Source of the DNA: Chiloscyllium plagiosum
Taxonomy: Eukaryota
NCBI RefSeq assembly: GCF_004010195.1
Contig: NC_057754.1
Span: forward strand, 2,051,139 to 2,071,138
Direction of reading: 5' to 3'
DNA: 20,000 nucleotides
Positions 1 to 19,055 of the stretch are shown here, in pieces (within the stretch, counting starts at the first letter, position 1; each line of letters begins with the position of its first letter). Under the pieces are notes generated by a model. It was not told the DNA's origin. It worked only from the letters and a program-made list of their open reading frames with translations, and did no database searches. Position numbers and translations under genes: made by a program.

Positions 1-383
1 AACTCACCTAGGATCTTACTGAAGTCATCGTATAGTGTGGTCGCGAGAGGACTCGGGCAGTGGGTGGTGCCAGAGAATAACAGTACACACCAGGGAGCAG
101 GCCAAGAGCAGTGATTATGATGGGATTGAGGCCACAGCTGATGGCTGAAGATGGAAGTACTCAGCAAGGTAATTACAAACATTGTCATAGAGAGCAGTCA
201 CAAGGGAACTCGGGTTGTAGTGATGCCAGGGGAAGAACAGTATGCTAACACAATTGGTGAGGGAATGACCACACAGAGAACACAATCCACCAAGGGGACT
301 CGGGCTGCAAACAGCTAATAGACTCAACTGGTGGGAAAAATTCCTGCTGGTGGGAAAACAAAGTGGTAGACGAATTTTGAGAA

Positions 384-1340
384 ATGGGACAATTTGATGA
401 AGAGACAGTGTTGCAAGCAGTACACTGAACATTTTTGTGCATGACTAGATTAGATTAGATTCCCTACAGTGTGGAAACAGACCCTTTGGCCCAACAAGTC
501 CACACTGACCCTCCGAGGAGTAACCCACCCAGACCCATTTCCCCTGACTAATGCACCTAACACTACGGTCAATTTAGAATGGCCAATTCACCTGACCTGC
601 ACATCTTTGGACTGTGGGAGGAAACCGGAGCACCCGGAGGAAACCCACGCAGACATGGAGAGAACGTGCAAACTCCACACAGGCTGGAATCGAACCTGGG
701 TCCCTGTTGCTGTGAGAAAGCAGTGCTAACCACTGAGCCACCGAGCGCCCACGGTGGCTAAAAACATACCGATACCGGTTTTCTTGAGTACTGTTGGGAG
801 CAATCCCTCCATGATTCTAAGGTGTCTGGTGCAACCAGAGAAACTTACAGAAGACATAGCAAGAACTATATGAATTGTTGGGGAGTTATTTTGCACCGAA
901 GTCATGGATGATCACAATGATTCTGTTTTTAATAATGGTTACAGCACAAAGGAGAGTCTATCACCCAATTTGTGGCCAGGTTAGCGGAACATTGAAAATT
1001 TAAAGGGTTTCTCTAAGATGCTTTGTGAGACCATTTGATTAGTGGCTTCTGATATGAAGCCACTAACAAAGAGAGACCTGGATTTCAAGGCAGTTTTCGA
1101 AATTGCTACCTTGATGGTGTTGACCGCCAGCAAACCTTCACAAACCTTGCGAAAGCAACTCAGTTGAGTGACAACTCCTGGGTGCATTAAATAGCGGAAT
1201 CTCAGTGGAGTGCAGTTCCTGACTGTAGAATGCCTCTTATATGGCAAGAGTGGACACAAGGAGTCAATATGGTGGGCTCGGGAAGCTCATTGCCACAGGT
1301 ATAAGCGACCATATTGCTCGAGATTGCCGAGTAAACTCAA
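384..1340 (+). pseudogene. Gypsy gag remnant, interrupted by a SINE at 446-750, with two decayed CCHC knuckles
   Basis: 'MGQFDEET..QYTEHF' lies before the SINE. 'VAKNIPIPVFLSTVG' and 'GESITQFVARLAEH*KF..L*DAL*DHLISG' lie after it, followed by knuckle-like 'ECLLYGKSGH' and 'CHR...HIARDCR'. Many stops and frameshifts. Confidence 0.75.
446..750 (-). mobile_element. tRNA-derived V-SINE (HE1-like), full length
   Basis: The minus strand begins GGGCGCTCGGTGGCTCAGTGGTTAGCACTG (A box) and GGTTCGATTCC (B box). It continues into a V-domain (TGTGTGGAGTTTGCACGTTCTC...GGGTTTCCTCCGGGTGCTCCGGTTTCCTCCCACAGTCCAAAGATGTGCAGG), a CR1/HER1-type 3' tail and a terminal (AATCT)n repeat. Confidence 0.92.
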
Positions 1341-2580
1341 CTAAAAGAAGGGATGTTTAAAGGACACAATTCAGGAGACAATACATAAGGTTCATATCAC
1401 CAGCCAGGAGAGGACTGGGAGTCAGCCGGGTCTGTGGGAGAAGCAGAAGGCCACAAATCTGTTGGGTTTGGTTCAATATTCTATCAGTATGGGATGAGGC
1501 TGATTGTTTCTGGGTTCTTCCCAAATCAGAGGGTAAGAGCATAAAGGTGGAAGTGGATATTTGTGGAGCAGTGTCTCTGTCTCCCAAATCAATATATAGG
1601 GAATAGTTAAAGGCACTGCCTTTGAAGGCTACCAAGATTACACGACTGATAATCAATGAACAAGTGATGCCACTGAAGGGCTATGTACTGGTAAAAGTAC
1701 AGGGTGGGACTAGAGTGCTAAACTACCTCTGTACATAGTGAAAGGTGACTACTCTGCATTATTCAGACTCTCCTGGTTACAGAAATTAAAGTTTAAATTG
1801 GTGCATAACTAATTGGCTGGCGGACTCAAAAATGAGTTTGCATGTGATTTTGGACAGTATAAAGATGTCTTCATGGAAACTCAGTGGAAATGAATGGTGT
1901 AGAAATTAAACTCGGTTTGAAGCAAGAGTTTTGTCCAGAGAGTCTGAAGATGTATCCAGTACTTCACGCCAACTGGCCTCAAATGGAGGCGAAACTGGAA
2001 TGACTGTTGAACCTGGGAGCGCTGGAACCAGTAACCATCAGTTAATGGGCCATTCCAGTTGTCCCTGTCTTAAAACCAGAAGGCACAGTGAGGATTTGTG
2101 GTTACTTTATGGTCATAGTCAACCCAGTCCTTGGTGCAGATCAATATCTACATCGTGAGGACCTGTTCATTGGACTAGCTGGGGGAAGGCAATTCTCAAA
2201 AATGGATCCGTCACAGGCCTACTTGCAGATGGGGGTCATGAAGGACTCCCAGCCACCGCTGACGAAAGTAACACAGTGGATTATTCCACTACAAGAGTTT
2301 GCCCTTTAGCATTGTGTCAGCACCATGTCTATACCAGAGAGCCTTGGATCAAAATTTGAGTGGATTGCTGGGTGTCCATTATTATCGGGATGAAATTTTG
2401 GCTCCTCTGAAGATGGTTACAGGAACACAGCCTAAACGTGAAAAGACTCCATAGAGTACCTGGGCCACGTAATAGATGGTGAGGGACTACACAAGGTGCC
2501 AAGAAGATAGAGGCTACCATGAAAGCCCTTAGACCAGAGAATGTGTCAACTGAGTCATGTAATTGGGACATGTAAATTAC

Positions 2581-3092
2581 TACAGTTCATGTCATCTTGC
2601 TATAGGAAGGGCATTATTAAATTGGAAAGGGTGCAGAAAAGATATACAAGGATGTTATTAGGACTAGAGAGTTTTAGGTGTAAGGAGAGGCTGAATAAGC
2701 TGAGGCTATTTTACTGGAGTGTCAGAGTCTGGGGGTGACAATGGAGGTTTATAAAATTATGAGAAGCATAGATAAGTTGAATAGCAAAGAGGTTTTTCTA
2801 GTGTAGGGGAGTTCAAAACTAGAGGGCATAGGTTTTAGGTGAGAGGGGAAAGATTTAAAAGGGACCTGAGGGATAACTTCTTCACACAGAATGGTGCGTC
2901 TTTGGAATGATCTGCTTGAGGAAGTACAGATAGAGTTATCACTTTTAAAAGACATTTGGGAAGGTACATAAAAGGTTTAGAGGGATATGGGCCAAATACA
3001 GTCAAATGGGGCTAGTTTAGTTTGAGAAACCTGGTTATTATAAAGGAGTTGGGTTTCAGGGTCTATTTCTGTGTTGTGACTCTATGATTGTA
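2581..3092 (+). mobile_element. 5'-truncated CR1 LINE 3' fragment inserted into the Gypsy RT/RNase H connection
   Basis: It encodes 'CYRKGIIKLERVQKRYTRMLLGLE', 'KTRGHRF.VRGERFK' and 'FFTQ', and ends in a CR1 tail with a (TCTATGA)-like repeat at ~3078-3092. Gypsy sequence 'VNYY' precedes it and 'YVPD' follows. Confidence 0.9.
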
Positions 3093-4134
3093 TGTATGTG
3101 CCTGATGTGGCTTACCGGGAGGTGAAGGAAGCTTTAAAAATGTCAGAAGTGTAAACACGTTTTGACCCAAGCTAACTAGTGCGATGTCTTGCCTTATAGA
3201 GGGTTGGCGCTGAACTGTCACAATGGAGTGGAAATGACTATTGCATTCCCATTGAGATCACTAATGAAGATGGAGGAGAAGTATGCCCAAGTGGAAACCT
3301 CCATTTTTGATCTGTATATGGGAATACTGACAGAGGCAGCAACATGCCTGTAGAGATAGGCACTGGCTCCATCAGCCTACTTGTATGAAATCAGATATTG
3401 ACAGTCAGAGAAGCACAGCAATACAGATGGTTTGTCAAGGTTACCACTACCAGGAATTAAGGAGGTACTTTTCCCTGGAAGACAAGGCACTCGTGTCAGT
3501 GAGTCAGGTGCAGAATGCTACCCGGAATGATCCAATCTCATGGACTCAGTCCTGAGAGGAAGGACTTTTCATAGAAACTGCCCAGAGTTACACCTTTACC
3601 TGTCCAAGAGGTGGGAATTGTCCACATCAGTGTTTAATGTGGGGATTGAAGGTTATATCCATTCACCATGAAGAAGATGATGCTGGAACATGTGCACCAA
3701 AGGCACCCTGGTATGGTGCAAATGACAGAAGTAGCCAGGAGCACCATTTGATGGCCGAATGTGAATGTTTGAGGAAAAAGAAGGGTCATGTGAATCCTGT
3801 GTACTAGTAAGGAAGGTGCTGCCATTGTTGACCCTTCACCCATGGGAGTGGCCTCAATCACTGTGCCAGCAGATTTATGTTGATTTCGCAGCAGCAGTAG
3901 AGGGAGGGGTGTTCCTAGCTGTTGTGGATGGCCACTCCAGGTAACCCAAGCTGGCTGTCATGAAGCCACTATCATCAGCAGCAACGATAGACTGACCAGG
4001 TGAAAGATTTGCCAGATTCAGGAACCTCAAACAAACGTGACCAACAATGGTCCACACGTTATGGTGCAAGAATTCAGGGAGTAGCTGGAAAATCACAGAG
4101 GCGTCATGTGAGATTGGCTGTGTATCACTTTGTG

Positions 4135-4344
4135 GAGAAAGTGAGGTCTGCAGATGCTGGAGATCAGAGCTGGAAATGTGTTGCTGGAAAAGCGCAGCAG
4201 GTCAGGCAGCATCCAAGGAGCAGGAGAATCGACGTTTCGGGCATAAGCCCTTCCTGAAGAAGGGCTTATGCCCGAAACGTCGATTCTCCTGCTCCTTGGA
4301 TGCTGCCTGACCTGCTGCGCTTTTCCAGCAACACATTTCCAGCT
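4135..4344. mobile_element. Short non-coding Penelope-type palindromic insertion (family A, copy 1) carrying an HHR motif
   Basis: Perfect 86-bp inverted repeat (4168-4253 / 4259-4344) with a 33-nt unpaired tail (4135-4167). Flanked by the direct repeat GCTGTGTATCACTTTGTG (4117-4134 / 4342-4359). Removing it restores the integrase frame. Confidence 0.9.
4251..4285 (+). ncRNA. Minimal type I hammerhead ribozyme motif (family A)
   Basis: CTGAAGA (4254-4260), A, stem II GGGC-TTAT-GCCC, GAAA (4274-4277), CGTC (GUC cleavage triplet). This matches the minimal PLE-associated HHR architecture. Stem I is short or truncated. Confidence 0.75.
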
Positions 4345-5166
4345 GTGTATCACTTTGTGACAAACAGCCAGGCGGAGAGATTTACACAAAGCTTCATGTC
4401 GGCCTTAAAGGCCTCACTAGGGGAGGGTTCACTAGATCAGCAACTCAACAAATTCCTCAGTATGTACCACATGCGACAACCCAGTGCACGCCACCGTCAC
4501 TTATGTTCAACTGCCAGCTGAGGGCGATGTTTGATGCAACTGGAAAAGGCCAGAGAGATGGTAAAGTGGAATCAAGAAGGACAGTTGACCAGAAGCGCAG
4601 GAACCTCACTGTCCAGAGTCTTTTAAAGAGGTGAGACTGTATTAGTCTGGAATTATACTTTTGTGGAAAAGTGGATCCCAGCAATAGTGGTGGCTCAAAC
4701 ATGACCGTTGTCATTTTCACTAGAGACGAGGGATGAACTGGCCTGGAAGAAACAAACAGACCAGCTGGCTTCTGCACCTCACCAAGGTGGGGAACATCCC
4801 TCAGAATAGATGGAACCAATGGTGTCGACCAAGTCATGTGTCTCCAAGCCAGAGTTGGCTGCATCCAGGGAGGAGACAATAGCATCACAGGGGAACAACA
4901 CCAAATCAGAGAGGGACATACCTGCAACATACCAAGAGCTTCCAGAAGCCCAGGAGTGTGTACTTAGAAAAGGTTCCTGAGAAGAGGCAACAGTCTTTGA
5001 GGAATCGCTATTCCCATGAGAGACTGACCATGTCTGTAAACTGTGGAAGGATTGTTTTCTTTTTTCATTTTTTTTGTGAATATTCCTGATGTATATATGT
5101 TCGCTGCAATGTTCATATAATAGTTATGATTGTTGGGTGTATAATCAGTAAAAGGGTTAATGGAAA

Positions 5167-5180
5167 TAAAGGGAGAGGGG
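5167..5180 (+). promoter_or_regulatory. Polypurine tract of the Gypsy element
   Basis: AAAAGGGAGAGGGG-type purine run immediately 5' of TGTTATGTAT. Confidence 0.8.
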
Positions 5181-5365
5181 TGTTATGTATGTAGTTGTGT
5201 GGTATTGCCCCTTTTAGAGAGTGGGTCAGCTGACGACACAAGAACTAGGGGAAGGATGGACTGTGGAGCTGAGGGGACACATAATAAAATATTCCTTGTT
5301 CAAAGTATTACCCATTATCCTCCTCATGTTCTATTTCCGGTTGTAGTGAGCAGCAAACACAATAT
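5181..5365 (+). repeat. Gypsy 3' LTR (right end approximate)
   Basis: Starts with TG directly after the PPT and contains AATAAA at ~5283. The right boundary near ...CAAACACAATA is inferred because the 5' LTR is not in the window. Confidence 0.65.
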
Positions 5366-5571
5366 AGGTCTATCAATGGAAAATTAGCTGAGCGTGAATG
5401 AGTACCCCACAAAGAAGAGAGCTTGTTCTCCTGGCATCATCCAGCATCTTTCCTTTAATCAAGACTAAACCAACACCAAGACAAGGAGTTAAATTATTCT
5501 TCTCTGTTGTTGCTTGTTGTGTTTGACTGTATGTTAAATAGTTGTTTTTGCCATTCAGCCATTGTTTCATA

Positions 5572-6045
5572 GGAGTAGATGGTGTAGTGGTCATGCCAAT
5601 GAACTGTAATCCAGATGTTGTGATTCATGGTCTGGGGAAATGGGTTCAGATCCCACCACAGCAGCTGGTGGACTATTACTCAATTAATCCATGTCGCACA
5701 GTTTCAATAACGCTGACCATAAAATCATTACTGGCTGTTGCAGAACCCCATCTCTTTTAGGGAGGAAAATTTGTCTTCCTTAACCAGACTGGCCTACATG
5801 TGACTGCCGGCTCACCACAATGTGGTCGACTCTTACCTGGCATATGAAAATGGCTATGCCACTCACTCAGTTCAAGGGTAATTAGGAATGGAGAAAAATT
5901 GCTGGCCTTGCCATTGAAGCACTCATCCCAAAATATTTTTAAAATGCCCTCAGAAATAGCTGAGCAAGCAACTCCGTTTAAGAGCAATTATGGATGGGGG
6001 AAAAATGCCAACTTTGACAGTGACTACTATATTCCACGAAGTAAC
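5572..6045 (+). mobile_element. tRNA-derived SINE (same family as 11560-11907) followed by a second copy of its 3' tail
   Basis: A-box-like TGGTGTAGTGG and B-box GGGTTCAGATCCC are present. The body (GGCCTACATGTGACT...CAATGTGGTCGACTCTTA) matches the reverse complement of 11650-11700. The tail motif AAATGGC..CACTCAGTTCAAGGGTAATTAGG recurs at ~5942-6040. Confidence 0.75.
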
Positions 6046-6714
6046 AAAGAACAAGTGATTTGGTCATTATAAGTAGTGTGGAATGTAAGATGAGACTTTT
6101 TGACTATGTCATAGTAATTTCTTTCCCCAATATCAGAGGATCTCAAAGTCTCGAGGAGCGCATTTATATCAGTGGTGTACCTTGATGTACACTAGGCATA
6201 GTATAATGACATCTTAGCTTCACTCATCTTTCACTGTGAGGACAAATACTTCTTTAGTGCCCCTGGAAACTCAACAAAATCAGTGTCAGGCACCTCTGCA
6301 GCAGGGCCTGTAAAAGAAAAATGATTGCCTTCCCTCCCTCCTCATTCTCTTCAAAGGTGTAATTTCTCAGGAAATTTTGAGCAGCACATCTCAAAGTCAA
6401 GGTACAGATGCAAGCCAGTAAAAAGGCAAATTTCCTGATGCCAGTAAGTTCTTCACAGAACAATCAAAGTATAAAAGGGAGGCATAAAATCCTGATAATT
6501 GAAGATACAGCTGGTGGGGTTTGGGGATTATCAATGAATGGTTGAATGAGGATGGATTAAATTACTTTCTTCATTCATATGTATCACATTAATAGGCTGG
6601 ACATGACTCAGTAACAATTTCAATATTGGGATTTGAAGAGGAGCTAGAATAACTTCAGAAAGTAACTGAAGGAAATCTATCTTATTCACTGAGTTATGTG
6701 AGGTGGAAGAGAAA

Positions 6715-7195
6715 CGTTCATATTTTAACTCATAGCAAGTCCTGTTATCTTGTCACTCCCATGTTTGCTTCCCATACTGGCTCCCGGTCAAGCAATATCT
6801 TGATTTTAAAAATTTTATTTCAAGTCACTCCATGGCTTCGCCGCTCAATGTACAGATCCATGATACTTGAAAGTTATCAGAGTCTAGATGAGAGTGGTGC
6901 TGGAAAAGCACAGCAGGTCAGGCAGCATCCGAGGAGCAGGAAAATCGACATTTCGGACAAAAGCCCTTTTGTCAGGAATGGAGGCAGGGTATCTCCACAA
7001 CTCCCTGCCTCCATTCCTGATGAAGGGCTTTTGCTCAAAACATCGATTTTCCTGCTCTTTGGATGCTGCCTGACCTGCTTGCTTTTCCAGCACCACTCTA
7101 ATCTAGACTCTGGTTTCCAGCATCTGCAGTCCTCACTTTTGCCACTGGAAAGTTATCAGCCTAAGACTCCTCTGTCCCATCCAGTAGTTCGATTC
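6715..7195 (+). mobile_element. Old L2-type LINE ORF2 C-terminal fragment, interrupted by family A copy 2
   Basis: Translation with frameshifts gives 'LTHSKS..VTPMFA.HWLPVKQ..DFKIL..KSLHG.A', which resembles the L2 'ITPVL..LHWLPV..RI.FKIL...KSLHGLAP' motif. Confidence 0.6.
6881..7143. mobile_element. Short non-coding Penelope-type palindromic insertion (family A, copy 2; older, opposite orientation)
   Basis: Imperfect inverted repeat (~6878-6989 / 7003-7112) with a 13-nt spacer and a 31-nt unpaired tail (7113-7143). TSD ACTTGAAAGTTATCAG (6865-6880) / ACTGGAAAGTTATCAG (7144-7159). The HHR core CTGATGA is at 7017-7023, with GAAA decayed to AAAA. Confidence 0.88.
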
Positions 7196-7249
7196 AATTA
7201 AGTCACGAGGTAACAAATGGTTTGGTGACTGTTGGAATGTGGATTACAG

Positions 7250-8610
7250 AAGCAGAACATCAGATTAACATAAAGTATGTTAATCTTTACACCACTGCAT
7301 TGAGCAACACCATTACCCAATGGACTTGTCCAAAGTGGCTCACCCATTGGTCCAAAAATAAGGCTGAGGCTATCATACTGATGGCATCATACTTGTGCTA
7401 AGAGGACAGCTTGGACCAGTCACCTTCAATAAACCAAAATGGATTTGTAAGCTGGATCATTGATCGTAGAACATATCTGAGAGGAGTACACCAATGTGTT
7501 TATAGGATGAAGTCTTTGTGGAGGATATCATCTCAAAGTCGCTGAGTGTAAGTTCCAATTCAGTATCTGCTGAGGCAAGTTCCAGCTGCCCTCAATGACA
7601 CACAAGATTAAAACAGAGTAACCAAGAGGGTGACAATTCCTGCAGAATGGGTTAGTAGCATGGTAATAGTGAAAAAAAAGCTGAGAAGCTGAGTATTTGC
7701 ATCAAGCTAAAGGATCTGAATAAAGCTGACTGGGAGCTCACTACCATTGAAAGCATTTTGCATCAATTTACAAAAACAAATATCTTCACTACCCTGGATA
7801 CAAAGAATAATTCCTGGCAAGTGAAGCTGGTTGAAAGCAGCAGCTCACATATGTAAAAGCAAGGCAGCAATTTCCTGGTTTCTTCAACTGTCAATTTATA
7901 GCCAAGGATATGCCGAGTACTGGGGCATGGGCAGCAAGCAGCGATCGCTAAAATCAAGCAACTAGTGACAGTAACTCAGGTGCTGAAATATCTCACAAAT
8001 GATCAAATCACAGTGCACAGTGATGTCAGTGACTCAGGATGCTGAGCAACCCTCATATTGCAAGGACAACCAACTGCATTTGTATCCAGGGCGTGAACAA
8101 TCTGAATAATGCTATATTTGAATCAAGAAAGAATGCTTGGCTATTGTTTTTGCTTTTGAACATATTCATCAGTACCTACTTGAAAGAGACATAATGACAG
8201 TTGAGACATAATGCCATCACTACACTACTGTCTACTCCAAAGCATCTTACTCAGTTACAGCACCAGCGAAGAAATTTGCCACTTCATAAAGGATTGGGGA
8301 ATTCAACATCATACATCATCTCCACACTCACTGCTGTCAAATAGAAAGGCTGAGGTGGCAGAGAAAATTTCAAAACAATCATAAAAAAATAAAGCAAATC
8401 CATCACAGGTGGAGAAGCATGCCTACTGCCTGCTGTATCCAAACTACTTTTTCAACAGCCAAAAAGCTCCTGATGGTAGAAGGTGAGATGGCAGAGAGCC
8501 AGACTTCATTTTAACAGGACTACCAAACTATTGCCAGACTTGAGTGTTGGAAAGTCAGTCAAGGTGCCAATTTTCAATTCTCCAAACAGCCAAGAGAACC
8601 TGCACAGTTA
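7250..8610 (+). mobile_element. Second, distinct Gypsy pol remnant with large internal deletions
   Basis: RT 'PAEWVSSMVIVKK', 'KLSICIKLKDLNKA' and 'IFTTLDTKNNSWQVKL'; RNase H 'ITVHSDVSDSG..ATL..QGQPTAFVSRA' and 'KECLAIVFAFEHIHQYL..R..MTVET'; integrase 'FIKDWGIQHHTSSPHSLLSNRKAEVAEKI'. Boundaries are approximate. Confidence 0.82.
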
Positions 8611-8946
8611 CTGCCTTTGCTGTTTTGAATTCATGTATCGCTGGACATCAGAGTGCGTCGGGGAAAACTAATAGACAGTGAAATTCACAACTAACCTTGG
8701 AGGAACCTGTTTGGGTGAAGTTCACAGCCCAGAAGCAGATAAGTTAATCGTTGTTTTAAGTGTGTCCAACAGAGAGGCTGCTGTAGTGAGTAGAGCGGGT
8801 TTTTTCTTGATTATATGTTTTTGGAGATATGTCTCTTGATTAAACTTAAAATATAAGCCATAACTGTTAATTTAACCTGGGGCAGTGTTTTGTAGAGGAA
8901 TAAGACGGTGTTATTTTCTGTGTCTGTAGATTGTGAAGGAGCAAAA

Positions 8947-9308
8947 GTGGCCTTTAGTAGAGTGATATGTACTTCTTGTCAGATGTGGGAGTTTAAAGAG
9001 AGTTTAAGGGTTACTGCAGATTATATCAGCCATAAATGCAGTTGGATACGAATCTTATCAGATCGAGTGGATCGGTTGGAGAGACACTTAGAAGCAATGA
9101 GGAATTTGCAACAGCAACAGTATGTGATGGATGGCAGTTATATGAAGGGGGGGGAAAGTCTCAAATACAGTCACATAGATGGGTTAACTCCAGGAAAGGT
9201 AAGAGAGGTAGGCAGCTAGTGCAGGAGTCTTTTGTGGATGTGCCCATTTCAAACAGGTATGCTGTTTTGGAAAATGTAGGGGTGATGGATTCTCAGGGGA
9301 ACGTAGCA
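8947..9308 (+). pseudogene. CR1 ORF1 N-terminal remnant (Cys-rich zinc finger plus leucine zipper)
   Basis: 'RVICTSCQMWEF...DYISHKCSWIRILSDRVDRLERHLEAMR' followed by 'VPISNRYAVLENV' after a frameshift, which is typical of CR1 ORF1p. Confidence 0.8.
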
Positions 9309-9309
9309 C

Positions 9310-11513
9310 GATTTAGATGGAGAGGAATTTGTTAAGTGTGTACAAGACAATTTTCTGATTCGGTATGTGAATGTACCTACTAGAGAAGATGCAAAATTTG
9401 ACCTACTCTTGGGAAATAAGGCAGGGCAGGTGACTGAGGTGTCAGTGGGGGAGCACTTTGGGGCCAGCGACCATAATTCTATTAGATTTAAAATAGTGAT
9501 GGAAAAGGATAGATCAGATCTAAAAGTTGAAGTTCTAAATTGGAGAAAGGCCAATTTTGACGGTATTAGGCATGAACTTTCGAAAGCTGATTGGGGGGAA
9601 ATGTTCACAGGTAAAGGGACGGCTGGAAAATGGGAAGCCTTCAGAAATGAGATAACGAGAATCCAGAGAAAGTATATTCCTGTCAGGGTGAAAGGGAAGG
9701 CGGGGAGGTATAGGCAATGCTGGATGACTAAAGGTATTGAGGGGTTGGTTAAGAAAAAGAAGGAAGCATATGTCAGGTATAGATAGGATAGATCGAGTGA
9801 ATACTTAGAAGAGTATAAAGGAAGTAGGAGTATACTTAAGTGGGAAATCAGGAGGGCAAAAAGGGGACATGCGATACCTTTGGCAAATAGAATTAAGGAA
9901 AATCCAAAGGGTTTTTGCAAATACATTAAGGACAAAAGGGTAACTAGGGAGAGAATAGAGCCCTTCAAAGATCAGCAAGACGGCCTTTGTGTGGAATCGC
10001 AGAAAATGGGGGAGATACTAAATGAGTAATTTGCATCAGTATTTACTGTGGAAAAGGATGTGGAAGTTATAGAGTATAAGGAAATAGATGATGACATCTT
10101 GCAAAGTGTCCAGATTACAGAGGAGGAACTGCGGGATGTCTTGAAATGGTTAAAGGTGGATAAATCCCCAGGGCCTGATCAGGTGTACCTGAAAACTCTG
10201 TGGGAAGCTAGAGAAGTGATTGCTGGGCCCCTTGCTGAGATATTTGTATCATTGATAGTCACAGGTGAGGTTCAGAAGACTGGAGGTTGGCAAATATGGT
10301 GCCATTATTTAAGAAGAGTGGTAAGGACAAGCCAGGGAACTATAGACCGGTGAGCCTGACCTCGGTGGTGGGCAAGTTGTTGGAGGAAATCCTGAGGGAC
10401 AGGATGTACATGTATTTGGGAAGGCAAGGACTGATTAGGGATAGTCAACATGGCTTTGTGCATGGGAAATCATGTCTCACAAACTTGATTGAGTTTTTTG
10501 AAGAAGTATCAAAGAAGATTGATGAGGGCAGAGCTGTAGATGTGATCTGCATGGACTTCAGTAAGGCGTTCGACAAGGTTCCCCATGGGAGACTGATTAG
10601 CAAGGTTAGACCTCATGGAATACAGGGAGAACTAGCCATTCAGATACAGAACTTGCTCAAAGGTAGAAATCAGAGGGTGGTGGTGGAAGGTTGTTTTTCA
10701 GACTGGAGGCCTGTGACCAGTGGAGTGCCACTAGGATCTGTGTGGATGCTGGGTCCTCTACTTTTTGTCATTTACATAAATGATTTGGATGCGAGCATAA
10801 GAGATACAGTTAGTAAGTTTGCAGATGACACCAAAATTGGAGGTGTAATGGACAGCGAAGAGGGTTACCTCAGATTACAACAGGATCTTGACCAGATGGG
10901 CCAATGGGCTGAGAAGTGGCAGATGGAGTTTAATTTAGATAAATGCGAGGTGCTGCATTTTGGGAAAGCAAATCAGAGCAGGACTTATACACTTAATGGG
11001 AAGGTCCTGGGGAGTGTTGCTGAACAAAGAGATCTTGGAGTGCAGGTTCATAGCTCCTTGAAAGTGGAGTGACAGGTCAATAGGATAGTGAAGAAGGCGT
11101 TTGGTAAGCTTTCTTTTATTGGTCAGAGTATTGAGTACAGGAGTTGGGAGATAATGTTGCGGCTGTACAGGATGTTGGTTAGGCCACTGTTGGAATATTG
11201 TGTGCAATTCTGGTCTCCTTCCTATCGGAAAGATATTGTGAAACTTGAAAGGGTTCAGAAACGATTTGCAAGGATGTTGCCAGGTTTGGAGGATTTGAGC
11301 TACAGGGAGAGGCTGAACAAGCTGTTTTCCCTGGAGCATCAGAGGCTGAGGGGTGACCATATAGAGGTTTACAAAATTAGGAGGGGCATGGCTAGGGTAA
11401 ATAGACAAAGTCTTTTCTCTGGGGTCGGGGAGTCCAGAACTAGAGGGCATAGGTTTAGGGTGAGAGGGGAAAGCCACAAAAGAGACCTAAGGGGCAACTA
11501 TTTCACGCAGAGG
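9310..11513 (+). pseudogene. CR1 ORF2 (partial APE endonuclease plus reverse transcriptase), disrupted
   Basis: 'PTREDAKFDLLL', 'GASDHNSIRF', 'KSPGPD', 'PGNYRPVSLTS', 'QHGF', 'DFSKAFDKVPH', 'SGVP.GS..LGPLLF', 'FADDTK' and 'LERVQKRFARM'. Broken by stops and frameshifts (~9790, 10027, ~10270, 11070). Confidence 0.95.
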
Positions 11514-11559
11514 GATAGAAATATGATCTGGAATAATGTGCTTCTTGGCTTCCTGTGGT

Positions 11560-11907
11560 TGTTTTTTAAAAATTTAATTAATTCATGGGATTTATTGCCA
11601 TGCCCAGCATTTATTGCCCATCCCTAATTACCCAGAAGACAGTTAAGGGTCAACCACATTGTTGTGGGTCTGGAGTCACATGTAGGCCAGACCAGGTAAG
11701 GATGGCAGTTTCCTTCCTTAAAGGACACTAGTGACCCAGATGGGTTTTTCTAACAATGGATTCAAGGTCAACATTAGACTCTTAATTCCAGACATTTATT
11801 GAATTCAAATTCCTGCCATGACAGGATTTGAACCCAGGGCCACAGAACATAACCTGGATCACTGGATTAACAGTCTAACAATAATGCAACTAGACCACTA
11901 CCTCCCC
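11560..11907 (-). mobile_element. tRNA-derived SINE (same family as 5572-6045)
   Basis: The minus strand starts GGGGAGGTAGTGGTCTAGTTG and has the B box GGGTTCAAATCC. It shares the body GGTCTGGCCTACATGTGACTCCAGACCCACAACAATGTGGTTGACCCTTAA and has an A-rich tail. Confidence 0.82.
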
Positions 11908-11944
11908 CTCTAGTGTCCTTCAGTGTCTCTAGTTTGAGACACTG

Positions 11945-13242
11945 AACAGGGGCTATCATTAGTGTCCACTATTGAGGATGAGATTGCTGCATATGTGGAA
12001 GTGTGTGGTAAAACAGGGCCGAGTCAGTACAGCTTTGTCAATACCTGACACATCAGTTAGAATTCTTTGAGGAGACAATTAGCAAATTAGACATACGAGA
12101 GTCAGTGAATGTGATCTGTTTGGATTTTTAGAAGGTCTTTGACAAGTTGCAACACAGGAAACTGCTAAATATGATAAGAGACCGTGATATTAGAGGCAAG
12201 GTAATAACATGGCTGGAGAATTAGTTTTCTGACAGAAGGCAGAGAGTGGGGATAAAGGAGTCTTTTTCAGGATGTCAGCTGGTGACCAGTGGAGTTCTGC
12301 AAGGTTCTGTGTTGGAACCAGAACTATTCACATTATGCATTAATGATCTGGATGAAGGAACTGAGGGCATTGTGTCTTCTGAAAACTCAGCAACAATGAT
12401 AGAGAAAATGTTGTGGAAGCAGGGAAGCTGCAGAAGACTTAGAAAGACAAGAAGAGTGGGCAAAGAAGTGGCAGATGGCGTTCAATGTGGGAAAGTATGA
12501 GGTTATGCACTTTGGTAGGAAGAATAGAGGTATAGGCTCTTTTCTAAATGGGGATTGGCTTCAGAAATCTGAAGCCTTCGGAACTTAAGAGTGTTAATTC
12601 AGGATTCATTTAACGTTTACATGCAGGTTCAGTTGTCAGTTAGAGCAAATGCAATATCAGCATTCATTTTGAGGTGCTAAAATACAAGAGCTGGAATCTA
12701 CTGCTGAGGCAGACCACATTTGGTATATTGTGAGCAGTTTTGGGTCCCATAACCAAGGAAAGATGTGCTGGAGTTGGAGAGGGTCCAGAGGAGGTTTACA
12801 AAAATGATCCTGGGACTGAAATGCTTGTCATTATGAGGAGTGGTTGAAGACTCTGGGACTATACTCAATGGAGTTTAGAAGGCTGGGGGGACTCTCTTCG
12901 AAACATACAGAATACTGAGTGGCTTAGATAGAGTAGACATAGAGAGGTTTCTCCTAGTAGAAGACACTAGGACTCACTGGCATACCCTCAGAACTGAGAT
13001 GAAAAGGAATTTCTTCAGCCAGTGGGTGGTGAATATGTAGGACTCATTACCGCCGAGGGTTGTGGATGCCAAGTCATTTGAGTGTATTTAAGACTGAGAC
13101 AAGTTCTTGATTAGTAAGGGGATCAAGGATAATGGGGAGAAGGCAGGAGAATGGGGTTGAAAAGCACATTAGCCATGATGCAGTGGCAGAGCAGACTCTA
13201 GCAGCTGAATAGCCAAATTTTGTTCCTGTATGTTATGGTCAT
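11945..13242 (+). mobile_element. Older, decayed CR1 LINE (RT to 3' tail)
   Basis: 'EFFEE', 'LDF*KVFDK', 'VTSGVLQGSVLEPELFTLCINDLDEG', 'WQMAFNVGK' and 'LERVQRRFTKMI'. The 3' tail ends ...TTCCTGTATGTTATGGTC. Confidence 0.88.
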
Positions 13243-13329
13243 CTTGCTGCCAATTTTCAATAAAGTCACAGTATATAAGCTAGACTATTGTCTTGAGAGC
13301 TTGTGACATTGACCAAGTCTGACTTAATG

Positions 13330-13433
13330 TTTCCTCATGTGATTTGTTGTCATACTTTGTTTTAAAATGACCCTGTGAAATGTCTTGGGATATTTCATTA
13401 CATTAAAGTGCTTTGTAAATGTAGGTTGTTGTG
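13330..13433 (+). mobile_element. L2-type LINE/SINE 3' terminal fragment
   Basis: CCTGTGAAATGTCTTGGGATATTTCATTACATTAAAGTGCTTTGTAAATGTAGGTTGTTGT resembles the L2 3' end (TGTGAAGCGCCTTGGG...AAAGGCGCTATATAAAT..(GTT)n). Confidence 0.55.
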
Positions 13434-14480
13434 AAATGTCTGAAGTTATCTGTGGCATTTGAAAGGTATGTGGGGGTGGGGGGAGAGGTGAGGAGGGTGC
13501 AGTGAAGCATAGTAACTCTACTGACAAGCCCCTGAGTGACATGTTTCAGTTCAGCTTGGTTGGAATAGAGTTCGAGTTGAATTTTTCTGTCTTGACCTTG
13601 AAATTGGGTATGTATTTTATAAACCTACTCAAGATTAGCAGTAAGATTTGAAGCCTGATTTATGAATTTTACTGGCTGTCTTCCTTTGTCAGCCTACTTC
13701 ATACCATTAACCTCCAGAAGCTGTTGAAGTCAACAATGTGACTAAGTGCATTTGTGCATGTCAATACAGCATTGATTTACCTGAGGTTGTCTTAAGACTT
13801 CAGGTTTCTTAGAAAACCTCTCAGTTCCAGCTGTAAAAGATTAGGAATTGTCAGTAACAACATCCAGGAAATACGTTCTGTGTGCCAATCTTTGTGAACC
13901 CATGCAAGATTTATTATGCACAAATATAAATTTGACATAATCTTTAGTTTAAACCAGTGAATTATGAAGATTATTTCTGTGAAAGAGAAAGACACTTCCA
14001 CACAAGAGACCTTCTATTTGATTTTGTGAGCAAGAGAAAGAAAAAAACAGAGACATCTGTATTTATACATCAGAGAGATTATCTGTAACATCAAAATGGC
14101 CCCTATGCATGGGCAGACATGATTCGTGGTCAGCTGGACATGACAGGCAACAGGGAGCCTCTGTACACACATGCACTGCTGACATCATTGGGAGGGGGAG
14201 GTGGAGTTGGAGGCTGATGAAGCAGAGTTTCTTCTTCCCATTGGCGTCAGCTGTTATTCATTCACTGCGGCCACCCAGCCATCTCCAGTCACCCCAGCAC
14301 CCAGAGAGAGGCCCTTCCTGGAGTGAGGAGCCTATGCCAGCAGGCCAGGGCTTTCACGGCTGTCCCCTCCCTTCCACCACACCACCCTCACTCAGATTCC
14401 AACATTCCCGATAATGATGTAAGCTGGCCATGACATTGTGTACCTGTTTTTCATTGCTTCACTTCATAGTAGCGTTCACA

Positions 14481-14927
14481 ATAAGTGCAGCCTTTATACA
14501 TGACCTTTCATGATATCCCATAGCACTTTACAACCAATGAAATCCTTTTAAAGTGTTCTATTTGTAGTTATTCTGAGTTTTGACAGGCAGTTTTCCCTGA
14601 GAAAACTTTTACAAACTGCAAAATAATAATGGTCAAACAATTTGTTGTTTGGTGATTTGGATTACTGCATTTATTATTAAAAATTAGCCAAGTCACGAGG
14701 GGTTAATTCTCTGCTGTCTTAGAAACAGTAGAATGGAAACCTTTGTATCCACCTAAGAGTGCAGGTAGGATATCGCTTTAAAGACTTATCTGAAAGATGG
14801 TAGCTCCGACAGTGCAGCACCGTCTTGATTCTCTGTTGGTGTGTCAGGTTTTTGTGCACAAGTCTCTGGAGAAACCTGGGCCCACAACTCTCAGACTCAA
14901 AGACCAACCAGAAAGCTGCCAACTGAC
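14481..14927 (-). mobile_element. DeuSINE (SacSINE1/AmnSINE1-related), decayed
   Basis: On the minus strand, a tRNA-like head (TCAGTTGGCAGC...TGAGTCTGAGAGTTGTGGG) is followed by a Deu core (GTGCTGCACTGTCGGAGCTACCATCTTTCAGATAAG...CTCTTAGGTGGATACAAA) and an L2-like tail (TTCATTGGTTGTAAAGTGCTATGGGA). Confidence 0.78.
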
Positions 14928-15469
14928 ATCAAAATACATCTCCACCAGGAACATCCATATTTAAGAACAAACACTGCAGATCCATGCATTCATGAGCAGT
15001 AGTAATTGACGCAATGCTTATACGTAAAATATTGATAGCTTAAAATAGTAGAAATCTTTTTCACTTCATCCAGGTGTGAAAATGTCGTTCATATAACTCA
15101 CAAAATCAGTAAGTCAAATTCTCAATCCTGTCTTATTTCTTTGCACATCTGTCTGGAAAATGAAACATACTTGGGTAACTTGAAATGAGGAATAACAGAC
15201 ATTTACCATGTGCTTCCTGGTTCTTTCTGTTTTTATCAGGCTTTTCTGCACCTTTGGGAAATCAGCAAGTAAACAGTATTGTTACTCTATTAGTTCTATG
15301 ACTACAGTATCTCTAAAAGGATTATAAAGGAAATCCTGGTGAATGTAGATCAAAGAGACCCCAGGCTCGGAGGAGCTGCTATTTAGAGCAAAGGAGTTGG
15401 TCCAGGAAGGGAATAATTGAAAGTTTAGGAATTTGTAGCACAGCCCAGTTCCTGTTGGCTAATTTAAAA

Positions 15470-15640
15470 AAAAAGTGGCTAAATAATGGCACTACCCAGT
15501 GTGTCACTAATCCCCACAGATGAATGGGGTTCCTAGTCTAATTGCCCATGTGTGCTGAGTTAATAGATCTTAGATCAGGCACTACAATTGTCCTCAGTAA
15601 CATCTGGGGTAAAGTAGAAAGATTACAAGATCAGCAGCTT
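15470..15640 (+). repeat. Probable ancient SINE fragment
   Basis: TGTGCTGAGTTAATAGATCTTAG...CTACAATTGTCCTCAGT resembles a decayed elasmobranch tRNA-SINE body as I recall it. It is strongly diverged. Confidence 0.35.
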
Positions 15641-16429
15641 TTCTGACATGCAGCTGTTTGAAATACGCTGCTTTTGTTTCTTTTCCCTCGTAGGGTCCAC
15701 TCTGCACTCCAGTACCAGCAAACATTGTTTAATAGTACTTCAGTACTGTGTGCAGTTGTAGTGGCTGTGGTTTAAAAAACCATTCAGTTTCTAAAGAAGG
15801 GTGTCAATCAGAGTGATGAAGCTGGACCCCAGCATTAAAGAGATGAACTTTGAGAAAAAAATGAGATAAGCTAAATGCCTTCAGCTTCAAAAAGTGTCTT
15901 CTAACAGAGGCAATTTTAGTGCAAACACAGAACTTTCAGATATGCAAACAGGATCAAGGCAAGTTGAGGACAGAGACCAAGAGAAATTTAGGGTGTAGGT
16001 TTGCTCGCTGAGCTGTAGGTTTGATATCCAGACGTTTCCTTACCTGGCTAGCCTCCAAGTGAAGCGAAGCTGTTGTCTCCTGCTTTCTATTTATATGTTT
16101 GTCCTGGTTGGGGTTCTTGGGGTTTGTGGTGATGTCATTTCCTATTCGTTTTCTGAGGGGTTAATAGATGGTATCTAGATCTATGTGTTTGTTTATGGCG
16201 TTGTGGTTGGAGTGCCAGGCCTCTAGGAATTCTCTGGCATGTCTTTGCTTGGCCTGTCCCAGGATAGATGTGTTGTCCCAGTCGAAATGGTGTTTTTTTT
16301 TCATCCATGTGTAGGGCTACAAGGGAGAGAGGGTCGTGTCTTTTTGTGGCTAGCTGGTGTTCGTGTATCCTGGTGGCTAACTTTCTTTCTGTTTGTCCTA
16401 CGTAGTTTTTGTGGCATTCCTTGCATGGA

Positions 16430-16563
16430 GGAGAAAGTGAGGTCTGCAGATGCTGGAGATCAAAGTTGAAACTTTATTGCTGGAACAGCACAGCAGGTCA
16501 GGCAGCATCCAGGGAACAGGAGATTCGACGTTTCGGGCACAGGCCCTTCTTCAGGGCCTGACC
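16430..16563 (-). mobile_element. Family A short element, copy 3 (one full arm plus a vestigial inverted arm), nested in the PLE GIY-YIG domain
   Basis: Shares GAGAAAGTGAGGTCTGCAGATGCTGGAGATCA...CAGCAGGTCAGGCAGCATCC with copy 1. TSD TGCATGGA (16422-16429 / 16564-16571). Confidence 0.9.
16522..16556 (-). ncRNA. Minimal hammerhead ribozyme motif (family A)
   Basis: The minus strand reads CTGAAGA-A-GGGC-CTGT-GCCC-GAAA-CGTC. The core is intact, and stem II is identical to copy 1 while the loop differs (CTGT vs TTAT). Confidence 0.75.
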
Positions 16564-17306
16564 TGCATGGAATTTTGTAGATGACGTTGGTTTTGTCCAT
16601 GGATTGTACTGGGTCTTTTAAGTTTGTTAGTTTTTGTTTGAGAGTATTGGTGGGTTTGTGTGCTACTAGGATTCTGAGGGGTCTTAGTAATCTGGCTGTC
16701 ATTTCTGAGACTTCTTTGATGTATGGTAAGGTGGTTAGGGTTTCTGGCTGTGTTAGGTCTGCTAATCGTGGTTTGTTCTTGAGGAATCTGCGGACTGTAT
16801 TTTTTCAGTATCTGTTCTTCTTGAATACGTTGTATAGGTGGTTCTCCTCTGTTTTCCGAAGTTCGTCTGTGCTGCAGTGTGTGGTGGCTCGTTGGAATAG
16901 TGTTCTGAAACAGCTTTGTTTGTGTGTATTGGGATGGTTGCTAGTGTAGTTAAGTATTTGGTCAGTGTTTGTCGGTTTTCTGTATACGCAGGTTTGTAGT
17001 TCTCCGTTGTCCTTTCTTTCGACTGTGACGTCCAGGAATGCGAGTTTGTTGTCAGTTTCTTCCTCCTTGGTGAACTTTATGCCTGTGAGGGTGTTGTTGA
17101 TGATGTTAAATGTCTCTTCTATCTTGTTTCGTTTTGTGTTGGCAAAGGTGTCATCTACGTAGCGGACCCAGATTTTTGGTTTGATGGTTGGTAGGGCTGT
17201 TTGTTCTAGTCTTTGCATTACCGCTTCTGCTATGAATCCTGATAGCGGAGATCCCTGCGTATACTTGCGTATAAAACAACTTTTCAAGAAGAACGGATAC
17301 TCAAAA

Positions 17307-17467
17307 AATTCTGTATCCAGACAGCTAAGTTCCCCTGTTTCCCACTCCTCCTGACCTTCTGAATGAGCCTACCATGGGGAACCTTATCAAATGCCTTGCT
17401 AAAGTCCATATACACCCATATCCACAGCTCGACCCTCATCAACTTTTCTAGTCACATCCTCAAAGAA
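17307..17467 (-). mobile_element. Internal CR1 RT fragment captured at the PLE inversion junction
   Basis: The minus strand translates to 'FFEDVTRKVDEGRAVD..VYMDFSKAFDKVPHGRLIQKVRRSGKQGNLAVWIQN', homologous to 10494-10652. Confidence 0.9.
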
Positions 17468-17604
17468 CATAGATCTAGATACCATCTATCAACCTCTCAG
17501 AAAACGAACAGGAAATGACATCACCACAAACCCCAGGAACCCCATCCAGGACAAACATATATATAGAAAGCAAGAGACAACAGCTTTGCTTCACTTGGAG
17601 GTCG

Positions 17605-17644
17605 CCACTGGTGATGTTACCTAGCCAGGTAATGAAACGTCTGG
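17605..17644 (+). ncRNA. Minimal type I hammerhead ribozyme motif (family B) in the PLE pseudo-LTR
   Basis: Stem I CCA/TGG, core CTGGTGA (one substitution from CTGATGA), stem II GTTACCT-AGCC-AGGTAAT, GAAA, CGTC. Confidence 0.72.
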
Positions 17645-18578
17645 ATATCAAACCTACAGCTCAGCGAGCAAACCTACACCCTAAACCTCAACCTGAGCTA
17701 CAAACCTTCACAAACCTTGCACCAAGAGAAATGTTTTACTCAAAGGTGAGCACGTGGGGTTAGCAAGGGACATGTGTTTATGAAATTGCAGGATGCTGCA
17801 AAGGACTTCTACCTGGAAGACTGAGATGGAGCAAGTTTTTTTTTAACTTGAATCTATCTTGGCAATGTTGTGTTTTTTCGAGCATTTTGTTGAAATTATT
17901 TCTATTTGTTTATTGAAGTCAGGAAGGAGTTGAAGGATGTACGTGTCATTGTAGTTCCCATGCAGGAGTTCAGGTCAGTCGATATCAAAGAACAAGCTGC
18001 TTTGAGAAACACTTTAGGTGTTAAATATACTGAATAGAGCTTTCTCATTAGAGGTTGTTAATAAACTGGATTGACTTTATTGCCTATACACCATTTGACA
18101 TTGTTGGAGTGGGGCAACGGGGAATTGTGGAAAACTGAGGACATTTGGTCTGAACTGTCTATGTTGATGTTTCTGCTCCACGCCAGCAACTCCTGCCTTT
18201 CCACATCGACATCTATCATCATAACTCTCTAATTCCTTCAGCCACAAATACTTGCTTAATTGACCCTTAAATTGACTCTTTGTTCTTTCATTAATTGGCC
18301 ATCTAAGGACCTCAACCTGATGGCAAAGTGAGAAGGTTGAGAATGGCACCTCCTACCCAAAATTAAATTCCATTGAAGGTGGAACAGCAGAGGGGACTGC
18401 CTTAGTTAAGTTGCCTTCCCATTCTAGCTCTGCTTGCTCCAAGACCACAAGAGTCTGCCCATTCTTTCTGTATCCATGCTATCAAAATCTTCCATAATTT
18501 TAAAGTCCTTCATTAGGTCATCACTCAGCCATTGTTTTTGAGAGTGAAGAGACTCAACATGTTAATTCTTTAATTCTC

Positions 18579-18730
18579 CCACACACACACACCAACACTC
18601 ACTCTCTCAGACATACCACACACACACACACACACATACACACACATACAAGCTTATGCACACATACTCTATCACGTGCACACACGCCCACATGCACACT
18701 CAATCTATTGCTCCTACATGCGCACACATA
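18579..18730. repeat. Imperfect (CA)n microsatellite
   Basis: Interrupted CA runs seen directly in the sequence. Confidence 0.9.
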
Positions 18731-19020
18731 TAAGTTTATGGGGTGAATTTGTTTTTGCAGAATTACATTTTATTTTGCTCAAAAACTGCATGGATCCATG
18801 TAAAACTCGAGACAGACTTTACACCTATTGTTTAAAAAGCTGAGCTATTTTGAGAATGTAACTTAAAAGAAGTTTTGGGATTTACCCATCAAAGCACAGA
18901 AACCAATATATCCCATTATAAAAGATGCAAGTTTTCTAAGATTGTTTACTGTATCACATCTCCATGACACTGGACTCCTTTGGCTATAAATTCTGTGAGC
19001 ATGATCTTAACCTCCACAAC

Positions 19021-19055
19021 CACCTGATAAAAGAGCGGCACTCCGAAAGCTAGTG
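19021..19055 (+). ncRNA. Degenerate minimal hammerhead ribozyme motif (family C)
   Basis: Stem I CAC/GTG, core CTGATAA (G to A from CTGATGA), stem II GAG..CTC, GAAA, palindromic AGCT then A (CUA triplet). Confidence 0.6.

Follow-up and report, generated by a model that had tools for sequence, protein, structure and literature searches.

Hairpin-shaped Penelope-like insertions in a shark genome and a possible origin of their inverted arms by priming at both target nicks

How a retroelement comes to lie joined to an inverted copy of itself is the question raised by three short insertions in the genome of Chiloscyllium plagiosum. They are located in a stretch of 20,000 nucleotides (nt) of contig NC_057754.1 (assembly GCF_004010195.1, positions 2,051,139 to 2,071,138 of the forward strand; hereafter the window, numbered from its first letter), and we found them, hairpin-shaped and of one family (family A), at the positions that a first-pass annotation, made from the letters alone, had given. 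They are likely dead 5'-truncated end pieces of an endonuclease-bearing (EN+) Penelope-like element (PLE), consisting of a pseudo-long terminal repeat (pLTR) with a minimal hammerhead, plus a tail. We favor, with moderate confidence, an account in which such end pieces are built at insertion by reverse transcriptase (RT) priming from both target nicks. Formation of the inverted PLE copy is called undefined by Craig et al. 2021 (PMC8557442; here and below, published work is cited from excerpts of the papers), and the position of the tail on either arm is a cheap genomic test of how PLEs make such copies.

Layout of the family A insertions

Copy 1 is flanked by a target site duplication (TSD) of 18 bp without mismatches (4117-4134 and 4342-4359), the final G of its left copy being also an element letter. 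The 33-nt tail (4135-4167, minus strand) is present on one arm only. It is followed by the tail-bearing arm (4168-4253, minus), which ends within the hammerhead core and lacks the CUGA box, and by the tail-less arm (4251-4344, plus), which contains a complete hammerhead core at 4254-4281 and extends 5 nt further upstream than its partner. The two arms are identical at 86 of 86 positions; TTC at 4251-4253 is common to both, and GCT at 4342-4344 is common to the tail-less arm and the right TSD. In copy 2, the TSDs (6865-6880 and 7144-7159) are 16 bp long with one mismatch, and the order of the arms is reversed: the tail-less arm comes first (6878-6989, minus, with a decayed hammerhead core), sharing CAG at 6878-6880 with the left TSD, and the tail-bearing arm follows (6990-7112, plus); its start precedes a decayed core (7017-7044) by 27 nt, and it leads into a 31-nt tail (7113-7143, plus). 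The arms agree at 100 of 112 positions, and 13 unpaired central nt (6990-7002) presumably belong to the tail-bearing arm. Copy 3 has TSDs of 8 bp (16422-16429 and 16564-16571). Its tail-bearing arm (16430-16555, minus) has a one-sided part of 63 nt (16430-16492) and a hammerhead core at 16554-16527, while its inverted arm (16556-16566, plus) is 11 nt long, mirrors 16493-16503 and shares TGC at 16564-16566 with the TSD. This copy sits within the open reading frame (ORF) of a second PLE, family B, which the first-pass annotation had not recorded.

The insertions are 134-263 nt long with no ORF inside. Read in the sense of the copy 2 plus strand, a family A arm consists of a short upstream part, the minimal hammerhead, about 65-70 nt and the tail. 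In each copy one arm runs to a shared end (GGAGAAAGTGAGG in copies 1 and 3, GGCAAAAGTGAGG in copy 2), and the inverted arm halts 33, 31 and 63 nt before that end in copies 1, 2 and 3. The common end is thus real, although the motif originally written for it matches no copy exactly. It is also less fixed than first described: the three copies share it, but in contigs from sequencing runs some family A copies run beyond it, with loose ends at 4134 that finish AACTA and T4133>A at 83% of local depth. Since the element continues past this end, the overlap with the target there is 1, 0 and 1 nt for copies 1, 2 and 3, scored against that continuation. The TSD lengths initially reported (15-18, 13-16 and 5-8 bp) were correct, the lower values (15, 13 and 5 bp) being those that remain when the 3-nt overlap is subtracted. 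At the center, the arms of copy 1 overlap by the 3 nt TTC and those of copy 3 meet bluntly. Because the short-arm ends and the centers differ among the three copies, the palindrome was not inherited from a single master.

This structure is ordinary for PLEs, and family A is a newly seen member of the published PLE insertion unit, in which an inverted 5'-truncated copy lies at the 5' end and a tail of 30-40 bp at one end (PMC8557442); in Adineta PLEs, the TSDs are 8-10 bp and the tail is 31 bp (Arkhipova et al. 2013, PMC3846280). Family A shares with the EN+ unit the adjacent inverted 5'-truncated copy (3/3), the one-sided tail (33 and 31 nt), TSDs of variable length (18, 16 and 8 bp) and the pLTR hammerhead; head-to-tail partial tandems, another feature of the unit, are seen for family A as joints in three DNA sequencing runs. 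It differs in its length and lack of an internal ORF, and in the 63-nt one-sided part of copy 3.

The family A core reads CUGANGA-A-GGGC-loop-GCCC-GAAAC-GUC. With its extra base before stem II, G-C closing pair, palindromic AC/GU and cleavage triplet, it matches the minimal PLE hammerhead as defined by Cervera and De la Pena 2014 (PMC4209133): an extra base between 9 and 10.1, a G10.1-C11.1 pair, palindromic 15.2-16.2 and no helix III. The core boxes are the same; family A differs in having a stem II of 4 bp. The same paper also records hammerhead pairs 100-700 bp apart on opposite strands. Two of the five long arms have a complete core (4254-4281, plus, and 16554-16527, minus), the latter with the 5' strand of stem I cut off, and the core is broken in the other three. 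The claim that stem II is retained with variable loops therefore holds in part: the loops TTAT, TTTT and CTGT are present, but in copy 2 the stem has G.U changes and the core is broken in both arms. Among the arms compared, no two-sided change in stem II was found. DNA variants fall at loop positions 4244-4246, and the stem positions have no variant except at a CpG (4239) among the 40 of 95 rows listed. An Rfam search returned no hammerhead family, only 12 matches to microRNA-type hairpins far under gathering scores. Copy 1 is predicted to fold as a perfect 86-bp hairpin (-194.8 kcal/mol), in which its hammerhead would be buried, and the inserted family A copies are predicted not to self-cleave.

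Tail position in two ORF-bearing PLE families

The PLE around copy 3 (family B, 15988-17720) also has inverted arms and its own pLTR, and is joined to an ORF for RT plus a GIY-YIG endonuclease. Its left TSD (15976-15987) is 12 bp, or 14 bp if one mismatch is allowed, and its right TSD lies at 17721-17732. The tail-less arm (15987-17254, minus; 5'-truncated, about 1.27 kb) carries the broken RT-thumb-GIY-YIG ORF (16146-17254, minus) and a pLTR on the ORF side (15987-16186, minus) that has lost the CUGA box through a 19-nt deletion. Copy 3 splits the reading, and residues 28-259 and 256-303 of protein P0001 align on opposite sides of it. The tail-bearing arm (17467-17720, plus) measures 254 nt and includes a hammerhead-like core (17608-17641) and a 35-nt tail (17686-17720, plus). 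In family B, the tail is thus on the short arm, and the long ORF arm is tail-less. Between the arms lies a junction (17254-17466) of 11-nt and 35-nt sense snippets of the element's own ORF and a 163-nt piece of an inverted long interspersed nuclear element (LINE) RT region, 71% like 10493-10654; this patchwork looks as if filler had been copied during the joining of two complementary DNA (cDNA) ends. The protein that best matches the fragment belongs to Chiloscyllium punctatum (92% identity), and the next best come from other carpet sharks. Family B was rejected as the source of family A, the two pLTRs having no alignable sequence in common. Elsewhere in the window, 1131-1150 is a 20-nt exact match to the end of the family B tail (17701-17720; E 2.7e-5) and is possibly a tail-only insertion.

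We scanned metagenome contigs with an alignment of 13 family B relatives and obtained 80 loci, of which 30 had an inverted repeat of at least 40 nt and 10 a candidate TSD. Five survived a control for chance, in which random position pairs reached 7 bp in 48/400 cases, 8 bp in 14/400 and 9 bp in 3/400. Loci L114, L115 and L117 (one site, 8 bp), L146 (8 bp) and L147 (7 bp) were dropped since TSDs of these lengths are too common by chance, and L073, with a 9-bp TSD, was retained because its tail finishes at the family's shared end. The five loci (L073, L081, L082, L083 and L091) represent five sites of one non-shark PLE family and are 84-93% alike. They have 9-12-bp TSDs, a hammerhead of the kind described above and one-sided stretches of 53-62 nt that end at a shared point. 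These tails are longer than the usually quoted 30-40 bp and are found on either arm. The arms of this family vary from 40 to 488 nt, and in family B the tail arm begins 141 nt before the CUGA box. In three of the five (L073, L083 and L091), it is the short inverted arm that carries the tail, and the ORF arm has none. The viral contigs yielded no PLE relative.

Counting family B, the tail-less arm is longer than the tail arm in 4/6 ORF-bearing insertions. In these four, tail-primed cDNA cannot have been the fold-back template of the tail-less arm, which is the long one with the ORF, and a tail that may lie on either arm points to two primings. The layouts of family B and the third family therefore favor priming from both target nicks over simple fold-back.

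Priming at the two target nicks and its alternatives

In the account that we favor, staggered nicks 5-18 nt apart, as the TSDs suggest, would leave two 3' overhangs. One overhang would start synthesis at a constant position inside the RNA, needing hardly any pairing (0-1 nt); this would give the shared end seen here and has been observed in vitro for PAc, the Poseidon element of Anolis carolinensis (Frangieh et al. 2024, PMC11167929). The other would prime on a sense template 31-63 nt further upstream, leaving the tail one-sided, and in family A a 3-nt match may fix the exact register of this second priming, the match being optional. Neither cDNA would reach full length (those of family A would stop close to the 5' edge of the hammerhead), and the two would be joined head to head by end joining, with a 3-nt overlap in copy 1, a blunt joint in copy 3 and filler in family B. 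The second template could be a second RNA or repeat unit, or else strand displacement could have freed the first RNA for reuse. The analysis supports the proposals that the insertions arose by target-primed retrotransposition of an element with a PLE-type hammerhead and that the second arm was built at insertion.

The PAc system provides precedents for parts of this account: two internal RT start sites delimit its tail, and its protein cuts and extends both target strands (PMC11167929). No PAc reads end at the hammerhead cut site, and the family A RNA reads likewise show no pile-up of ends. The PAc ORF begins in stem II, whereas family A has no established ORF start, and PAc initiation is reported as non-homologous to the target, whereas the tail-less ends of family A have a 3-nt match. 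The account also resembles L1 twin priming and the proposed dual priming, where in a TSD-bounded inversion the second overhang pairs over a short stretch with an internal site and the two cDNAs meet at an internal junction that has little or no microhomology (PMC2837659; bioRxiv 10.1101/2024.08.27.596794). Unlike L1 twin priming, family A has no poly(A) at its ends but a fixed internal end, its arms overlap almost wholly rather than representing separate stretches of the RNA, and the distance between the two sites is nearly constant.

The match between the tail-less arm and the TSD is 3 nt in all three family A copies (GCT, CAG and TGC), as the first-pass annotation had observed. An overlap of at least 3 nt has a simulated chance of 0.057 per junction and of 1.8e-4 for three, and in family A it is commoner than chance by this test, which is post hoc, having been selected after the data were seen. 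We did not find that microhomology-primed synthesis of the second arm, as first proposed, holds as a rule. Five insertions of the third family, with the same layout, have overlaps of 1, 1, 0, 0 and 1 nt at this end (L073, L081, L082, L083 and L091), so that microhomology is no general requirement there. In family B the overlap is 1 nt under the 12-bp reading of the TSD and 3 nt under the 14-bp reading, which allows one mismatch. Overlaps of 3 nt with the target overhang thus number 3/3 in family A, 0/5 in the metagenome family and 0-1/1 in family B. At the tail end, the third-family overlaps, scored by eye, are 0, 1, 0 (up to 3), 4 and 4 nt, judged against a continuation past the tail in only three loci. 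Over all families together, 5/17 of the junctions scored have an overlap of at least 3 nt against about 1 expected (P 0.002), so that pairing over a few nt is probably a help at either end but not a necessity. In the largely non-subscription literature searched, we found no description of a 3-nt overlap at the tail-less end of PLE insertions. A very high-copy young shark family could supply thousands of junctions on whether pairing guides the second priming.

Several points weigh against priming from both nicks. Family A offers only three junction sets at base level, and no ORF has been tied to it in the window or in protein searches with its pLTR reading. No tail-less end of the metagenome family reaches 3 nt (0/5), and PAc initiation is itself called non-homologous. 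The pooled junction test is post hoc, mixes families and takes the third-family continuation from three loci. Two-strand priming as the origin of the inverted copy is an inference made here and is not derived in the excerpt of PMC11167929; a two-nick account of PLE inverted copies was likewise not found in the literature searched. For family A taken alone a fold-back is possible, copy 2 being a hairpin with a 13-nt loop and the center of copy 1 having perhaps later lost bases between two TTC words.

Such a fold-back, in which the 3' end of the tail-primed cDNA snaps back, DNA-directed synthesis then copies it and LINE-type 5'-junction microhomology closes the far end on the target, is the strongest alternative, although on balance we consider it unlikely. 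It accounts for the 3-nt tail-less overlap equally well, and it fits the clean loop in copy 2 and the near-identical arms, of the same subfamily within each copy; the snippets of its own ORF at the center of family B resemble snap-back copies. What it leaves unexplained is a tail-less arm that is longer than the tail arm (family B and 3/5 metagenome insertions) and the center of copy 3, which has no priming match. Furthermore, the tail-less ends are confined to a narrow range (31-35 nt for family B and copies 1 and 2, 53-62 nt for the third family), as expected for a second start site.

We give a much smaller chance to self-priming on an antisense template, by which the inverted junction would be made on RNA or cDNA before insertion. 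PMC3846280 interprets palindromes at inverted junctions in this way, and in an RNA run family A reads occur on both strands. Nevertheless, 97% of the aligned RNA reads continue into unlike sequence, as host transcripts would, and self-priming explains neither the match of the tail-less end to the target in 3/3 copies nor a tail on either arm.

Slightly less probable again is a self-cleaving retrozyme, a short tandem unit that is cut by the hammerhead, circularized and copied as multimers. Non-LTR retrozymes, which are head-to-tail repeats each with a complete hammerhead and circular RNA (PMC7229834; 10.64898/2026.07.22.740005), resemble family A in being short, ORF-less and PLE-related, with type I hammerheads and TSDs, and PLE-derived ones are reported in a chondrichthyan (10.64898/2026.07.22.740005). 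Head-to-tail joints of family A do exist (from 4253 back to 4134 in 19 contigs of DNA run X1, spacer not given), but they are few compared to 2,527 loose ends at 4253. The three copies are head to head rather than tandem and mostly lack a complete motif, no arm begins or ends at GUC, and RNA ends do not pile up, although the poly(A) library is weak for this purpose. Finally, a palindromic DNA element like a miniature inverted-repeat transposable element, moving as a hairpin unit, would suit the perfect 86-bp fold of copy 1 but is contradicted by all three copies, with TSDs ranging from 5-8 to 15-18 bp, asymmetric ends and variable centers and arm lengths, and we regard its chance as close to nil.

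Abundance, transcripts, autonomy and neighboring sequence

To place family A beyond the window, public runs were aligned to 4040-4256: three DNA runs (X1, which may be the source of the window; organism B; and organism C) and one RNA run (X21). Contigs with family A sequence number 105,230 in X1 (of 22.7 million; some differences were left uncounted there owing to the volume of matches), 83,922 in organism B (of 25.2 million) and 74,172 in organism C (of 35.4 million). Summed contig depth was rejected as a measure of copy number, giving from 6e4 to 5e6 arms depending on the overlap setting. One contig each of organism B (2,634 bp) and organism C (3,690 bp) matches the left flank of copy 1 to 4134 or 4131 and then continues without the element. 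The copy 1 site thus appears empty in these two species, on matches that could come from a paralog, and copy 1 is therefore likely young; copy 2, with arms that are 11% diverged, is likely older. These data agree with the earlier view of a high-copy, long-lived family. Family A DNA patterns had no matches in metagenome contigs or in viral contigs, and 69 matches of a family A 18-mer in prokaryote genomes were set aside as chance, none aligning over more than 34 nt.

The tandem joints that the first-pass annotation had proposed to look for run from 4253 back to 4133, 4134, 4166 or 4167 and occur in all three DNA runs; they are few, and the contigs do not give the spacer length. Loose ends behind 4253 were found in 2,527, 2,344 and 1,695 contigs (X1, organism B and organism C). 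In all three species they agree over 13 letters, reaching a point 8 nt before the CUGA box, and diverge beyond it, in contigs that, being built from short reads, break at the branch points of copies and so under-represent long common extensions.

In the RNA run (poly(A) single-cell, 2% read), 3,463 of 12.96 million reads aligned to family A, on both strands, the great majority of them continuing into other sequence as noted above. The absence of a pile-up among the ends of these reads is weak evidence against GUC ends or circular RNA in a library of this kind. Family A RNA reads as passive transcription within host RNA, and no RNA run was listed as a match for 4360-6860. The same insertion process that makes the hairpins yields ready double-stranded RNA inside host transcripts. 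Over 4135-4253, places with A>G or T>C number 27 in RNA compared to 9, 11 and 9 in the DNA runs (about threefold; Fisher P 0.05, 0.025 and 0.019), while C>T plus G>A places are about equal (31 in RNA, and 27, 34 and 32 in DNA). All four T>C rows listed are skewed to one read direction, but so are G>A rows 4192, 4201 and 4239, and only 2-3 of the seven A>G rows lean the expected way. These counts, from RNA and DNA of different individuals, suggest ADAR (adenosine-to-inosine) editing of family A hairpins; a lizard Penelope is heavily edited (PMC5625713).

Whether family A moves from its own ORF-less template is a separate matter. The suggestion that its autonomous partner lies outside the window stands insofar as no family A ORF is present there, but an ORF-bearing PLE of another family, family B, is. 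Non-autonomous PLE derivatives are known, for example MRC1 and Chlamys-N. The long-arm starts, relative to the CUGA box, are -27, -14, -3, -1 and +5, all five within 27 nt, in contrast to the arms of family B and the third family. This clustering favors a discrete template, although an RT stop at the ribozyme fold would give the same pattern. Against reading the family as non-autonomous, some of its copies continue past the tail end, as expected if the template runs into a next unit. In Chlamydomonas, the median length of de novo PLE insertions is 128 bp (PMC9977147), so that short copies are normal output of autonomous PLEs and short length is a poor sign of non-autonomy. A protein reading of the pLTR (4135-4260, minus) gave seven candidates, none scored, and four HMMER matches to unrelated repeat-bearing proteins; without a relevant match, an ORF start in this pLTR is not established, and in copy 2 a stop interrupts this frame in each arm. 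A discrete ORF-less family A template is a tentative idea that we hold doubtful. More speculative still is that family A is a PLE derivative like a short interspersed nuclear element, whose own short RNA would start about 8 nt upstream of the hammerhead and serve in trans as template for a dimeric PLE enzyme working from both nicks, its self-complementary hairpins, on the order of 10^5 in shark genomes, being major ADAR substrates.

The remaining features of the window concern other elements. Copy 1 is inserted among fragments (2046-4520) that resemble a decayed LTR-retrotransposon pol, its flank resembling an integrase relic; Pfam and PDB searches gave no confirmation. Downstream of a CA-rich tract (18579-18714) lies a decayed hammerhead-like motif of another family (19020-19050), for which we found no inverted arm and no convincing TSD. 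A long broken LINE occupies 9307-11627, with a strong RT match at 10269-11072 (Pfam RVT_1, 8e-32), and older pieces related to it are present at 2583-2890 and 12063-12515.

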